A program made the position numbers and the translations under genes. 64,000 nt of DNA from an uncultured Gammaproteobacteria bacterium (GTDB taxonomy: Bacteria > Patescibacteriota > Microgenomatia > UBA8517), in NCBI GenBank assembly GCA_964431555.1, contig CAYSJW010000005.1, forward strand, positions 15,215 to 79,214. The letters run 5' to 3'. Positions 13,641 to 60,304 of the stretch are shown in pieces; positions within the stretch are counted from its first letter, which is position 1; every line of letters starts with the position of its first letter. The notes under the pieces were generated by a model. The model made no database searches. It was given only the letters and a program-made list of their open reading frames with translations, and was not told the DNA's origin.

Positions 13641-14650
13641 GATGCTCTAGCGGTTTGTCCGCAAACAGTTTCAGGTTCTATTTCACTGGGCGTCCCGCCC
13701 TTCTTTTCGCCTTTCCCTCACGGTACTTGTTCACTATCGGTTTTCAAGCATATTTAGCCTTGGAGGATGGTTCCCCCAGATTCCCACAGATTTTAGACCG
13801 TGGTACTTAGGATACTTCTAGAGGTTGGTTTAGTTTCACATACGAGGCTTTCACTCTCTATGGCCTTCTATTCCAAGACGTTCTGCTACCAAACCAACTC
13901 CCACAATGAAGTCCTGCAACCCTCTTTCGTTCCCGAAGAAACAAAAGAGTTTAGGCTATTGCCGTTTCGCTCTCCACTACTAAGGCAATCACTATTGTTT
14001 TCTTTTCCTCACCCTACTAAGATGTTTCAGTTCGGATGGTTCCCTCCTCGCACCTTATAGGTACTCACAACAATCAACAATCAACCAACAGATATTGTAA
14101 GTTCCGCGGAGCGGAACACGTCGACTGTTAACTGTAGAGAGTACCTCTTAGGGTACGGGTAGTCGCTTTTGAAAGCAACTGGGTTTCCCCATTCGGACAC
14201 CGCCGGATCACTGGATCGTGGCTCCTACCCGGCGATTATCGGAAGCCTTGCCCGTCCTTCTTCGGTGCTTGAAACCAAGGCATCCACTGTCTGCGTTAGT
14301 AAAAGACTTTTACGACCTTGTCCGTAATAGCTTGTACAAAGTACACGCATACGGACCTACTTCCCCAAATTAAAAGATCAATATTGGGGATATCTTTCCT
14401 CTTTAGTTGTTAAGGAGCAAATCAATTTTAGATATAAGATCTAAGATACAGGATACAAGATTTAAGATTTCAGTTCAAAAAATCTTACTTCCTACTTCCT
14501 TCATCTTACATCCTAATTCCAACAACTAACCACTCACAACCCACAACTCACCACTTATTTCCCACTACCCATATATTCTTGATTCTTGGTAAACGGAGAC
14601 TCGTGATCAAAAAGCCAAATCACCAATCTCCGATTAGCAAAAATCAAATG

Positions 14651-14724
14651 TGGACCCGGAGGGAATCGAACCCTCTACCTCCTCATTGCAAATGAGGTGT
14701 TCAAACCTTGTAAACTTCGGGCCC
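14651..14724 (-). tRNA. tRNA-Ala (anticodon UGC).
   Basis: Reverse complement GGGCCCGAAGTTTACAAGGTTTGAACACCTCATTTGCAATGAGGAGGTAGAGGGTTCGATTCCCTCCGGGTCCA. The anticodon loop is TTTGCAA, with G3:U70 and an A discriminator. It lies upstream of 23S as expected for a spacer tRNA. Confidence 0.88.
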
Positions 14725-14954
14725 TAACCCCCACGGATCTTTTAATTTTTTTAATCTGCAAAACAAAAAAACCCGCTCATTAAGGCGGGTTGACTAAACA
14801 AAAGGAAACCTCTTTCACCCACAAAAGGGGGTATTAAGATTGGTTTCTTTGTGAATTTTCATTATTTTCATCAAGCAACTCGCCTTAAGGCAAGGACAAT
14901 TATATTACACTCTGTCAAGACAAGTCAACCACAATTTTTTTCAAAATATCTCCC

Positions 14955-15839
14955 CTAATTGATTGATTCTTGAATAATTTCTCTGGCTTGATTAATAGGT
15001 AATTTTTCGTTTTTTACATTAACCTCATCAGGCAAATTCTTTCCCCAAATTTCCAAAATTCTTTGTCTATCATTTTCATCCGTAACTAACTGCTTAAATC
15101 TCTCCCTTACAAAATTAACGAAAAAGTATGGATTAACTTCTGCAAAAGGATTTTCAATCCCATTTTCATATATCAATCCTAAAAGTCTCCTCTCATTTTG
15201 ACTAAATAAATCATTACCAATCTGATCCATGACTCTCATAAAAACACTAAATGGAGATTTTTGGTCTTCAGGCATGTATTTCGTTTCGTTTATAAGATGT
15301 TTGACAAATTGATTATACCTTTGCTTTTTTTCCTCGCCCAAATTGGAATTATTAATTAAAAATTCAGCAATAGCTTGACTCCTTTCTTCCGCAACTTTGC
15401 CTGTAAAAACATCTTTACCAGCAGTATAGTTGGGAAGGAAAGAAGGTTTAATATTGCCACTTCTTACCGAGAGAAAACTTATTATATTACCAGTATCGTG
15501 GGTATAGATTGCAAACATTATAGCTTCAGACAATTCATCTTCCGGAATAATTAAGTCTGGATGAGAATTATTCCACAAATCCAACGACTTATACAATTCT
15601 AACGGATCATCATCTCTAGAACATCCATCCATATACTTTTTTACAGCACCCACTACTGCTTCAATGTGGCGTCTATTATGAAAGGAGTCTTTATTATTCC
15701 ATACCTCGCTATCAAAAGTATCATGCCACGTAAGACATTTTTCCCAAATTTCCTGGGGCGATAATTGCTCCTTTAATCTACTAGTCTCATTCTCAACAAT
15801 TACAGTTTGAATTTCCTGATTTTCAAGAACATCTGTCAT
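14955..15839 (-). CDS. HD-domain (metal-dependent phosphohydrolase superfamily) protein encoded between tRNA-Ile and tRNA-Ala of the rRNA operon.
   Basis: A 294-aa ORF with H...HD motifs (FHNRRHIEAVV; AIYTHDTGNI) and later acidic residues. It is on the same strand as, and between, the two spacer tRNAs. Confidence 0.55.
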   Translation of the reverse strand: MTDVLENQEIQTVIVENETSRLKEQLSPQEIWEKCLTWHDTFDSEVWNNKDSFHNRRHIEAVVGAVKKYMDGCSRDDDPLELYKSLDLWNNSHPDLIIPEDELSEAIMFAIYTHDTGNIISFLSVRSGNIKPSFLPNYTAGKDVFTGKVAEERSQAIAEFLINNSNLGEEKKQRYNQFVKHLINETKYMPEDQKSPFSVFMRVMDQIGNDLFSQNERRLLGLIYENGIENPFAEVNPYFFVNFVRERFKQLVTDENDRQRILEIWGKNLPDEVNVKNEKLPINQAREIIQESIN

Positions 15840-15939
15840 TTAATAACCCTTGATATATATGATATATACTTCATTTTACCAACCTGGAAAATAAAATTAA
15901 AACAAATCTCCTTTATTTATAAAAATAGTTCAGTTTTTG

Positions 15940-16012
15940 TGGGCGGCCATGGAATCGAACCATGCACCTCTTACTTATCAGGTAAGCGTTCTAACCGATG
16001 AACTAGCCGCCC
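15940..16012 (-). tRNA. tRNA-Ile (anticodon GAU).
   Basis: Reverse complement GGGCGGCTAGTTCATCGGTTAGAACGCTTACCTGATAAGTAAGAGGTGCATGGTTCGATTCCATGGCCGCCCA. The anticodon loop is CTGATAA and the cloverleaf is canonical. Confidence 0.9.
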
Positions 16013-58280: not shown

Positions 58281-58629
58281 AATAGTATATAGGTTATAAT
58301 AGATAGCATATGAGTTACTTGTTTCTCAAAATTTTTATTAATGCATTTAGCATTTTATGAACTGTTACACTCTGGTTCCTAAACCAAATTATACTTCTTC
58401 TTTTCTAAATACCCCACATCTTTACAAATAAGCAACTGATTCTGAAGTTTACTTAATGATACTTTTGTCATTGTATAAAACTGAATTTTCTTTATTTGGT
58501 AAGTTTTTCTATTATTGCATAAACAAAAAGAACAAGCCTATGTCCTTCTCTCCAAACATTCAAATTATAAAAATGGGCAATCTTTCTTTCTGACACATAT
58601 CCTATTCCCCACCCACTATCTACTAACTA

Positions 58630-59586
58630 CTAAAACAAACTTCCTTGGTTTTCCGAAACAATAGATCTACCAACCTCTTTCACTCTTTTTGCCAAGGACT
58701 TAAAACCATATTCGGAAAATAAATCTAGCACCTTTTGACTATCCACTCTCCAATTCTTCAATTTTCCCAAATCCACCTTAAATTCCATATCTTTTACAAT
58801 TCTGGCAAGTTTTTGAAACCTAAAAGCATTTTCTTTATCCTTTTCTAGTTTTTTTCTTGTTGATTCATCTAAATCCTTGAGGTGTTTATAAATACTCTCT
58901 AAACTCTCATATTTAGCCAAAAGTTTAACTGCAGTTTTTGGACCAATTCCAGAAACTCCCGGATAATTATCCGATGGGTCTCCCACTAAAGCTTTAAAAT
59001 CGGGAATCTGCTTTGGTTTTACCCCAAGTTTTTCAACTACATCCTCTTCCTTCATTAACTTAGCAGCCGATAAGCCTTTCACAGGCATATAAACACTGAT
59101 ATTTTTTCCATCATCAACGAGCTGCAGGATATCTCTATCTCCCGTAACAACAACAACCTCATCAATTCTTGACTGATTGAGCTGTTTAGAAGTCCCCGCC
59201 AATTGTAAGGCAAGCGTACCGATGATATCATCCGCCTCATATCCGGGAGCTTCAAAAATAGGTATATCCATTGCCGAAAAAACATCTTTAGTTTTCTCAA
59301 TTTGAACCTGCAAATCATTTTCCAAAGGAGGTCTTTGCGCTTGATAATCAGGAAACTCTTTTCGTCTGAAAGTAGGTTCTGGCCGATCAAAAGCAACAGC
59401 CAAGTGTGTTGGTTTTAGGTCTTGAATCACCCTTAAAAGCATTGAAACCAAACCATAAACGGCATTTATCGGTTCTCCTTTCCTTGTAGTTAAAGGAGGA
59501 AGAGCATGATAAGCGCGGTGCAAAATTGCGTGGCCGTCAATCAAGATAAGTTTGCGATTTGCTGATTTGGATAAAGATTCATTCAT
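58630..59586 (-). CDS. Stand-alone 5'-3' exonuclease / flap endonuclease (Pol I N-terminal-domain-like).
   Basis: KLILIDGHAILHRAYHALPP...AVAFDRPEPTFRRKEFPDYQAQR...GDRDILQL...IPGVSGIGPKTA (H3TH). 318 aa. Confidence 0.85.
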   Translation of the reverse strand: MNESLSKSANRKLILIDGHAILHRAYHALPPLTTRKGEPINAVYGLVSMLLRVIQDLKPTHLAVAFDRPEPTFRRKEFPDYQAQRPPLENDLQVQIEKTKDVFSAMDIPIFEAPGYEADDIIGTLALQLAGTSKQLNQSRIDEVVVVTGDRDILQLVDDGKNISVYMPVKGLSAAKLMKEEDVVEKLGVKPKQIPDFKALVGDPSDNYPGVSGIGPKTAVKLLAKYESLESIYKHLKDLDESTRKKLEKDKENAFRFQKLARIVKDMEFKVDLGKLKNWRVDSQKVLDLFSEYGFKSLAKRVKEVGRSIVSENQGSLF

Positions 59587-59880
59587 AGGAGAAATTCTTT
59601 AGTATTTAGTATTTAGTATTTAGTAGTTAGTGGTTAGTGGTCAGTGGTTAGTAGTTTATAGTTGATCATTAGCAATAAATTTTCCTTCCACCTTTCAACC
59701 AACCACCAACAACTTATAACTTATAACTTATAACTTACTTCTCACTACCCCCCTCTTACTTATCATCACTCACAGCTCACAATCCACTACTTATTTCTCA
59801 CTTCTCACAACCCACTACTCATAACTCACTACACGCTATCCACTTCTCACTATCTACACAATCTACGACTAACCTACCTT
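59587..59880 (+). repeat. Back-to-back inverted heptamer arrays: (TTAGTRG)n at 59590..59680 (C-free) switching to (CYCACWA)n at 59690..59880 (G-free).
   Basis: AGTATTTAGTATTTAGTATTTAGTAGTTAGTGGTTAGTGG... is followed by ...CTCACTTCTCACAACCCACTACTCATAACTCACTAC. The two halves are imperfect reverse complements. An 18-bp near-palindrome CGATAATTCGAATCATCG follows at 59899..59916. Confidence 0.85.
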
Positions 59881-60061
59881 TTAATGACTTATCCACTTCG
59901 ATAATTCGAATCATCGATGTAATTTAAGATTTACTAATTGTCAAGAACAATCCGATAATAATTTAAAATTAGCTACAATATTAATCGTATATATAAAGAA
60001 AATTTTTCCTGTATTAACTATTAACTAAAGTTTACTCCATACAGGCTAATACATAATTCTG

Positions 60062-60304
60062 AACTTTTATTCTATTTCAAATTCTCTTTACCTAACTACT
60101 CACAACTCACCACCCACCACTCACTTCCTACTCCCTAATCCCTACATCTTACTTCTTACATCCTATTCTTACTTCCTATAACCAACTACAAACAACCAAT
60201 AACTAACAACTTACCACTCACTACTCACCACCCACTACCCACCACTCACTTCTTACTTTATATTTCCTTTCTTTCCAACTATTTTTTCAAAATCATCTCT
60301 ATCT
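60062..60304 (+). repeat. 243-nt G-free heptamer-repeat tract spanning the ftsH stop and 3' flank.
   Basis: No G between 60062 and 60304. Repeats are of the form CTACTCA CAACTCA CCACCCA CCACTCA. Confidence 0.85.

Follow-up and report, generated by a model that had tools for sequence, protein, structure and literature searches.

Heptanucleotide repeats have been known in bacteria since about 1990, and to our knowledge no function has been established for them. Intergenic tandem arrays of 7-nt units are described in Cyanobacteria (short tandemly repeated repetitive sequences, STRR), in Xanthomonas (GGGAATC) and in Nostoc (GGGGAYT) (PMC4692102). TAACTGA direct repeats occur in Beggiatoaceae, Cyanobacteria and Bacteroidetes, and a post-transcriptional role has been proposed for them (PMC4679880). 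The G-rich heptamers of Xanthomonas and Nostoc form G-quadruplexes, and polymerase slippage has been put forward to explain the bacterial heptamer excess (PMC4692102). In Nostoc, heptamer arrays near start codons influence expression (bioRxiv 10.1101/2022.06.06.494920). Here, we describe heptamer arrays in a 64,000-nt stretch of contig CAYSJW010000005.1 (the window), which belongs to a Microgenomates-like genome of the candidate phyla radiation (CPR). An earlier note on this DNA did not recognise its repeats as a described class, a view that goes too far given the intergenic heptamer arrays already known (PMC4692102, PMC4679880). Descriptions of those families mention no three-letter alphabet.

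The arrays are a genome-specific, dispersed family of tandem, degenerate 7-nt repeats and, with high confidence, the CPR counterpart of the STRR-like heptameric simple sequence repeats (SSRs). Their units lie head to tail at many dispersed, mostly intergenic loci, as in that class. The commonest units, AACTAAC, CACTCAC, AACCCAC and TACTCAC, match no named family (STRR1 CCCCAGT, STRR2 TTGGTCA, STRR3 CAACAGT, TAACTGA or GGGAATC). No report of heptamer repeats in Patescibacteria or CPR bacteria, or of heptamer repeats linked to PF05635 genes, was found in the open-access literature.

The three-letter heptamer arrays

In the window, seven stretches of 100 nt or more lack one base entirely, which confirms the core of what the earlier note had claimed. 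Six are G-free on the plus strand: 14474-14580 (107 nt), 16030-16159 (130 nt), 41835-41995 (161 nt), 42143-42305 (163 nt), 59673-59774 (102 nt) and 60062-60305 (244 nt). One is C-free (23742-23934, 193 nt). Shorter runs lie at 33087-33153 (G-free, 67 nt) and 22085-22137 (C-free, 53 nt). The null was a set of 200 third-order Markov simulations of the window, in which G-free runs of at least 100 nt had a mean of 0.005 against the six observed, and in which no G-free run exceeded 102 nt, compared with 244 nt in the window. Chance composition, which would have disposed of the tracts, therefore fails to account for them.

The period is 7 nt. In a sliding autocorrelation, lag 7 yields 17 periodic segments that total 1,857 nt and lag 14 yields 12, whereas lags 3-6, 8-11 and 13 yield none and 20 simulations are likewise empty; this bears out the periodicity suspected earlier. 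Tandem Repeats Finder (TRF) reports periods of 7, 14, 21 or 28 in every tract. Three independent assemblies (ENA ERZ27245602, JGI 3300022548 and JGI 3300010284) are identical over the entire ftsH-exonuclease spacer at 59.6-60.3 kb, with 0 mismatches in 6-7 kb across the arrays named T9 to T11. A fourth contig (JGI) agrees over 42122-42305 and then terminates inside array T8b, at an internal 126-nt duplication. Because independent assemblies agree base for base, the arrays are genuine, though they break assemblies, and the collapse of reads named as a possible refutation does not apply.

The units are best described by the consensus HACYHAC on the G-poor strand (GTDRGTD on the other), which replaces the CCACTAM/CYCACWA consensus first drawn. 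On the G-poor strand, 202 in-phase units comprise 105 distinct heptamers. Positions A2, C3, A6 and C7 are conserved, G is absent from positions 1, 4, 5 and 7, and the conserved AC dinucleotides are spaced alternately by 4 and 3 nt. The block types xACxCAC, TTCCTAC/ATCTTAC and AACTAAC/AACCAAC form mosaics, reordered at at least eight loci and in both orientations. Arrays grow by duplicating blocks of 7, 14, 21 or 28 nt. They stay in register for up to ~41 units, and the one clear slip is a 6-nt unit in T11. Across ~190 unit junctions there are at most three register slips, despite ~2.4 differences per junction.

Base exclusion is nearly complete. Strict arrays hold 7 G in 169 units; the excluded base makes up ~0.5% and its complement 36-49%. 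The excluded base makes up ~12% of other intergenic DNA, and 4-fold degenerate sites of the sense strand hold 12.8% C and 16% G. Array G+C is ~40%, compared with 29% at 4-fold sites. Joined in a minimum spanning tree, the 83 distinct units of the strict arrays require at least 97 substitutions, and the tree has 70 single-step edges: 27 A/C, 26 A/T, 14 C/T, 2 A/G and 1 C/G. This vocabulary is transversion-dominated and near G-free, unlike any ordinary mutation spectrum. The test built on it is rough, giving P ~0.004-0.01 under the most conservative assumption (13-15% of changes create G), and selection for the three-letter, in-register form is therefore likely, not proven. Coding potential was rejected: the C-free strand has stops in all frames, and the G-free strand has short, low-complexity open reading frames (ORFs) with no family match.

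At least 12 arrays at at least eight loci account for 15% of the non-coding, non-RNA DNA of the window. They are non-coding, have 7-41 units, and start at one gene's stop codon to extend as far as, or close to, the next gene's start codon. Three adjoin tRNA or rRNA genes.

T1 (14474-14580, G-free on the plus strand over its 107 nt) lies between the 5' end of the 23S gene and tRNA-Pro. Both neighbours are on the minus strand, so T1 is C-free in the sense RNA. A partner array of AGATAYA type and TRF period 7 in the same spacer (14418-14473) pairs with the TCCTAC-type part of T1. The neighbouring tRNA-Pro was called by ARAGORN at 14650-14740, with a length of 91 nt and the unusual anticodon AGG; the Rfam match covers only 14651-14724, and the call may be an odd or miscalled tRNA. 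T2 (16030-16159, 130 nt, G-free on the plus strand) begins 18 nt upstream of tRNA-Ile (minus strand) and has higher-order repeats of 14 and 28 nt. T3 (20320-20437, minus; TAGCAGT/TTAGTTG units, G-rich on the plus strand) and T4 (20805-20900, plus; the reverse complement of T3) are the 5' and 3' arms of a cassette taken up below. The tracts listed earlier at 20341-20427 and 20811-20880 are indeed heptamer arrays, but with 8 C and 5 G, respectively, they are not strictly three-letter.

T5 (22086-22137, minus; TTTAGTA/TTAGTGG units, C-free on the plus strand) lies ~50 nt upstream of a plus-strand ORF at 22186-22671. That ORF has a 24-nt tandem repeat in five copies (22312-22430), which encodes octapeptide repeats of VTRSVVPE type. 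T6 (23742-23955, minus) is C-free on the plus strand over its 193-nt run and is built from TTAGTTG, GTGGGTA and GTTAGAA blocks. A 46-nt, hairpin-containing module (23700-23745, plus) abuts T6. Its inverted second copy (33045-33090), 87% complementary, abuts T7 (33087-33156, plus; G-poor on the plus strand), which the minus-strand tRNA-Lys and tRNA-Gln genes flank on either side.

T8a (41770-41984, plus; G-poor on the plus strand, with 1 G) ends exactly at the ATG of a 99-aa ORF (41473-41772, minus). T8b (42019-42311, plus; ~41 units in register, 3 G) provides pth (42272-42853, minus) with its final codons and stop codon, and one of its blocks, of 126 nt, recurs in T8a at 94% identity. The single tract drawn earlier at 41770-42311 is really these two arrays, with 4 G inside them, split by a non-repeat 30-nt module. 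This module, TTATCCACTTYGATRATTCGAATCATMGAT (41985-42014, plus), has the palindromic core GATGATTCGAATCATC, and its second copy is at 59889-59918 (plus). A search of the window gives 2 matches with 0 expected, both embedded between arrays, and the module could be an operator or a processing site. A chromosomal replication origin around the TTATCCAC modules was rejected: DnaA-box-like matches number 20 with 18.7 expected, and there is no skew switch, the cumulative GC skew being monotonic across the window.

T9 (59590-59666, minus; TTTAGTA/TTAGTGG units) is C-poor on the plus strand, hence G-poor in the sense RNA. It lies directly upstream of the 5'-3' exonuclease gene and ends ~10 nt or less from the ATG. 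T10 (59673-59885, plus; G-poor on the plus strand, 3 G) follows in the opposite orientation, so the tract previously given as 59590-59880 is a composite of the two. T11 (60062-60305, plus) has 244 nt and no G, and overlaps the final 17 codons of ftsH (60253-62130, minus). Two sites in rRNA had been credited with the same flavour. The one in 16S is a short CAACTAA-type array (27128-27170, plus) within an expansion of a variable helix (~27100-27190) that inserts 93 nt where the Rfam consensus has 3. The one in 23S is one arm, (CAACAAT)2.6, of an inverted repeat that forms a helix extension at 14053-14152.

A second intergenic repeat family of ~68 nt (ACCCGAAAGGTTTGAACCTATTCAACCCGTCGGGTTTGAACCTA), unrelated to the heptamer arrays and with small internal hairpins, occurs in five copies (30803-30870, 32340-32407, 32442-32509, 32519-32586 and 56731-56798). 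The window, part of the 67,956-bp ENA contig ERZ27245602 k141_228336, has a G+C of 36.7% and a strong strand bias (14,373 C and 9,109 G on the plus strand), and most genes are on the minus strand. Its genes include those for FtsH, Pth, a stand-alone 5'-3' exonuclease, an ATP-dependent DNA ligase, RadA, S1, TrxB and Rho. The rRNA genes are unlinked and carry insertions, and rRNA and tRNA are the only Rfam matches. The nearest species representatives are Patescibacteria, Collierbacteria among them, at 48% identity. No relative was found near enough for substitution analysis, the best matches being 48% identical in GTDB and 61% over a full-length protein in metagenomes.

Strand polarity, folding and the origin of the arrays

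Co-directional genes surround T1, T5, T7, T8a, T8b, T9, T10 and T11. Of these eight contexts, seven have the C-free strand as sense strand, T9 being the sole exception, so the earlier statement that orientation relative to genes is not constant needs correcting. Sense strands in general have more G than C, and the polarity agrees with this bias.

Over stretches of up to 287 nt, the folding energy predicted for the G-free strand is 0.0 kcal/mol. The C-free strand reaches -5 to -10 kcal per 100 nt, compared with -16 to -21 in random 200-nt windows. By prediction, solo arrays are the least structured sequences of the window on both strands. Inverted pairs behave differently in three cases. The T3/T4 duplex has z = -9.4, and the whole 581-nt element (20320-20900) folds with z = -6.9. 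An ORF-less inverted pair at 14418-14520 has a duplex z of -4.3, and the minus strand of 14400-14600 folds with z = -3.8. The third pair, formed by the arms of a 16S insertion at 27740-27790 and 27325-27375, gives z = -3.1 for both duplex and fold. Long-range pairing of T6 with its left flank and of T10 with T9 is at shuffle level. The RNA stems proposed earlier thus stand for three inverted pairs only, and the pairing is ordinary complementarity, not G-U self-pairing. Promoter and terminator scans of two long spacers gave nothing above shuffles, with zero intrinsic terminators.

Rho utilization (rut) sites are stretches of about 70-80 nt of C-rich, G-poor, unstructured RNA. The G-free strand has this composition (36-49% C, 0-1% G, minimum free energy 0.0 kcal/mol). 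Its position is not that of a rut site, since it is antisense in seven of the eight co-directional contexts and sense only in T9. The window encodes a canonical Rho (E = 3e-115 to solved Rho structures).

We tentatively propose that, within the transcript, the arrays have two modes of action in cis. Inverted pairs would form long stems, as in rRNA intervening sequences, and such stems, computed around the gene at 20447-20719, around the PF05635 gene in 16S and as the ORF-less hairpin upstream of 23S, may be cleaved by RNase III. Solo arrays, confined to three letters, would leave both strands without the means to fold. The sense transcript, C-free and GU-rich, would offer no Rho loading site over 100-650 nt of untranslated RNA that has stops in every frame. 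An antisense transcript, G-free and C-rich, would have the composition of an ideal Rho loading site and may be terminated. Solo arrays could thus serve as inert spacers that work in one direction between co-directional genes. They could also, or instead, be periodically spaced landing pads for a factor that binds single strands, a platform with which the conserved AC..AC register is also compatible.

Other genomes bear on this proposal. The relatives compared were 34 metagenome loci that encode the neighbouring CvpA-CAP protein at 37-76% identity (329 kb). They hold 26 lag-7 segments and at most three at each other lag tested, in arrays of CTCAAAA, AAATTCC, AATCACC and TAGTGAT units. Across 80 loci from diverse bacteria, 13 of 26 lag-7 segments are in loci whose record titles say CPR. 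No array of the same units was found in ~1.7 Mb of loci, so the search for the same family in related CPR genomes that the earlier note advised turned up lag-7 arrays of other units. The 30-nt and 46-nt modules are absent from all 135 loci of other genomes. Long three-letter arrays are special to this genome among the loci compared. Viral contigs scanned with CACHACYCACHACYCACHAC gave >120 matches; the ten loci with the longest arrays have a G+C of 28-66%, and PF05635 is present in 0 of 120 loci.

Several points weigh against a role in the transcript. The polarity rests on eight non-independent contexts and is inseparable from replication-strand polarity within 64 kb, and T9 has the opposite polarity. 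T10 and T9, and T6 and its flanks, pair no better than shuffles. The arrays of relatives are short, have other units, are not three-letter, lack polarity and are patchy at orthologous spacers. Near-total exclusion of C exceeds what Rho avoidance alone should need, and no candidate array-binding protein was identified. Long co-directional spacers of other CPR loci show no depletion of C. This leads us to reject Rho avoidance as a rule that holds across CPR bacteria, and any function is therefore lineage-specific or dispensable.

The chief rival account has a real though lesser chance of being correct. The arrays may be a neutral or selfish by-product of a lineage-wide 7-nt slippage bias that produces them at any site that tolerates them, and they would be functionless. 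Their three-letter look would stem from G-free founder units, which a strand with 14% G is likely to supply, and from AT-biased mutation, in which new G seldom arises. The heptamer-generating mechanism envisaged before is supported in this respect: lag-7 periodicity is pervasive and extends to coding insertions, rRNA expansions and related genomes. From the arrays in relatives and the coding inserts, it follows that a 7-nt duplication bias is general in the clade. Slippage has already been proposed for the heptamer excess (PMC4692102). It is also favoured by lag-7 signals in other CPR loci, by the patchiness of arrays at orthologous spacers, by the long spacers of other CPR genomes that are not C-depleted, and by the few G that do occur (7 in 169 strict units). 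Moreover, 3 G-involving steps of 70 are improbable only at P ~0.004-0.01 if 13-15% of changes create G. Slippage does not readily explain why so few slips (at most 3) accompany so many differences between adjacent units, why the vocabulary is transversion-dominated with almost no A/G differences, or why array G+C exceeds that of 4-fold sites. Block types shared by at least eight loci in both orientations and a polarity that tracks gene direction are likewise unexpected under it.

Heptamers also occur within genes. (TTTTGAT)n repeats are read in frame as lysine-rich inserts of IKNQKSK type at 53339-53391, 53582-53612, 57683-57713, 42707-42757 and 54886-54907, in genes for NAD(P)HX dehydratase, a glycosyltransferase, Pth and RecF. 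The same ATCAAAA-type unit fills intergenic spacers of related genomes.

PF05635 genes, rRNA insertions and the remaining explanations

The rRNA intervening-sequence protein has been known since about 1993, and we know of no established function for it. Its family, PF05635, is related to Avd, an accessory protein of diversity-generating retroelements (PMC10053308). ORFs of this kind are known in 23S intervening sequences of several bacteria, and in CPR bacteria PF05635 ORFs occur in insertions of 16S and 23S rRNA (PMC11270868). In other bacteria, RNase III cleaves intervening sequences (PMC11270868).

Two four-helix-bundle genes of this family (23S_rRNA_IVP) are present in the window, and inverted array pairs bracket them, as the earlier note had said of genes in general. 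The first (20447-20719, plus) encodes 90 aa, is C-terminally short and is enclosed by T3 and T4 (PF05635 E = 5e-23, TIGR02436 E = 4e-21). The second (27360-27722, minus) is full-length (PF05635 E = 2e-25, profile positions 3-105 of 106, with tblastn support) and lies inside a 16S intervening sequence at ~27330-27790. The 5' end of the 16S gene (gagggtttgatcctggcccag...) is at ~27860, and the Rfam alignment resumes 460 nt further on. This element is an insertion in helix 6, the first variable helix, has a closing stem and carries a PF05635 ORF. Its 5' arm is at 27740-27790 (minus) and its 3' arm at 27325-27375 (minus; GTTAGTT GTAACCA GTTACTT...).

Among CPR loci, 5 of 9 PF05635 genes have a period of 7 in both flanks, compared with 1 of 158 other genes (Fisher P = 7e-7). 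The CPR genes are inserted between pilC and pilin genes, between gtrA and dnaX, between def and fmt, or in 16S, and their flanking arrays include (CTAGAAA)n/(TGTTTCC)n, (TGTTAAC)n and (AGCGGAT)n. By eye or by lag-7 score, flanks of the same kind are found around PF05635 genes of cyanobacterial plasmids, as (AAAGCTA)n, (CTCTGCC)n and (GGGTGTA)n/(CTACACC)n, and as (CAGAGGA)-type arms in a 23S intervening sequence of Azospirillum. One Nostoc copy has arms of period 8. Heptamer-array arms of PF05635 cassettes were not found described in the open-access papers. In other CPR and cyanobacterial loci, near-perfect arrays bracket these genes (locus L121, 9884-10429; L132, 8000-8140; L125, 320-1020; L129, 430-1020), for example (TGTTTCC)8, (AGCGGAT)8 and (AAAGCTA)15; in most of them, purines predominate in the 5' arm, and its complement, the 3' arm, is rich in pyrimidines.

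The surroundings of both genes hold further insertions. An IS1595/ISXO2-like insertion sequence (19319-20192; transposase ORF 19403-20134, minus; 33-nt terminal inverted repeats) immediately adjoins the free-standing cassette at 20320-20900. The 16S gene spans 24956-27860 (minus), ~2.9 kb compared with 1.5 kb in the Rfam annotation (25898-27399). It has an insertion of ~900 nt near position 1400 with a LAGLIDADG ORF (25113-25559), and its true 3' end, GGATCACCTCCTT, is at 24956-24968. The 23S gene extends 3' of its Rfam match, at 10131-11240, with domain VI sequence at ~10190-10480, in a region split by an insertion with a LAGLIDADG endonuclease ORF (10580-11083).

A broader and more speculative reading would make heptamer arrays and PF05635 genes two halves of one system, present in CPR bacteria, Cyanobacteria and some proteobacterial rRNA intervening sequences. 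The protein would recognise, process or propagate array nucleic acid. Cassettes would seed arrays around the genome, and the long three-letter arrays would be dispersed cis sites that the exclusion of one base keeps single-stranded.

A related possibility, which we consider unlikely, is that the arrays are cis sites or remnants of an Avd-like PF05635 mobile cassette, putatively recognised or propagated by its protein. Solo arrays would then be orphan arms or empty cassettes, comparable to miniature inverted-repeat transposable elements. Both PF05635 genes of the window lie within inverted heptamer arms, and the pattern recurs in CPR bacteria, Cyanobacteria and the alphaproteobacterial 23S intervening sequence. 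Cassette loci differ between genomes, the hairpin at 14418-14520 has heptamer arms and no ORF, and T3 shares units with T5, T6 and T9, all of which suit a mobile element. The largest arrays (T8, T10, T11 and T2) argue otherwise, being direct repeats with no complementary partner. In addition, the arms of different cassettes share no sequence, and no mobility enzyme is linked to the cassettes.

Binding of the double-stranded arrays by a nucleoid or regulatory protein is more doubtful still. Three units make 21 bp, or two helical turns, and several arrays have higher-order periods of 21 nt. The alternating 4- and 3-nt spacing of AC dinucleotides and the conserved palindromic 30-nt module between arrays at two loci would also suit such a protein. 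Duplex recognition would not be expected to impose a strand-specific three-letter constraint or a polarity relative to genes. No cognate protein is known, and the arrays are not conserved among relatives.

G-quadruplex or i-motif elements, as for GGGAATC and GGGGAYT, are effectively refuted as a general explanation. The Xanthomonas and Nostoc heptamers do form quadruplexes (PMC4692102), and T6 has one perfect (G3N4)3G3 motif at 23846-23869. No other canonical motif (four or more G3 runs with loops of 1-7 nt) occurs in 64 kb, and most units, such as GTTAGTT, GTAGGAA and GTGAGTA, have no G-run, so the quadruplexes suggested earlier find no general footing. An assembly artefact of collapsed low-complexity reads, to which the JGI contig that terminates inside T8b might point, can be dismissed given three identical assemblies over T9-T11 and a fourth that agrees over 42122-42305.

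The arrays are spread throughout a streamlined CPR genome, in which non-coding DNA should come at a cost, and they occupy ~15% of that DNA in the window. Base exclusion and the kept register suggest that selection acts on a single-stranded form. Arrays are statistically linked with PF05635 genes, beside which they occur across phyla, and this offers a testable handle on both puzzles, the repeats and the protein. There are practical consequences as well, as heptamer arrays break short-read CPR assemblies and displace rRNA gene boundaries in automatic annotation.

Comparison with described repeat systems

A clustered regularly interspaced short palindromic repeat (CRISPR) array, a class of identical 24-48-nt repeats with unique spacers, was rejected, as the 7-mers are contiguous and have zero spacers. 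The repetitive extragenic palindromic (REP) sequences of enterobacteria and the mosaic elements built from them (BIME) are dispersed, transcribed and intergenic, and REP units are self-folding palindromes of ~35 nt. The arrays resemble them in combining few motif types in varying order and orientation, but consist of 7-nt tandem units incapable of folding. With rut sites they share, on the G-free strand, a C content of 36-49%, the lack of G and zero predicted structure, in a genome that has rho. They differ in that this strand is nearly always antisense to the flanking genes and in their periodicity, which rut sites lack.

The element at ~27330-27790 is like the rRNA intervening sequences with a 23S_rRNA_IVP ORF (PMC11270868) in its variable-helix insertion, closing stem and PF05635 ORF. 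The free-standing cassette at 20320-20900 is laid out in the same way. Unlike intervening sequences, most arrays of the window are solo, ORF-less and outside rRNA. TAACTGA repeats are likewise intergenic, oriented to the downstream gene, and often end a few nucleotides from its start codon. Theirs is one defined unit in 2-6 copies (up to 43), whereas the present arrays have a degenerate unit, are far longer and three-letter, and abut stop codons too.

The closest likeness is to STRR and other heptameric long SSRs, which are tandem 7-mers, often heterogeneous, at many scattered intergenic sites. Some are paired in inverse orientation, and their length and sequence vary between related species. 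All four bases are present in those repeats, and quadruplex-forming G-runs are frequent. The arrays of the window have 105 distinct units among 202, stay strictly in register, exclude one base and reside in a CPR host. The three-letter alphabet, the degenerate yet in-register unit, the CPR host and the tie to the arms of intervening sequences set the family apart, and arrays this long, degenerate and confined to three letters look new.

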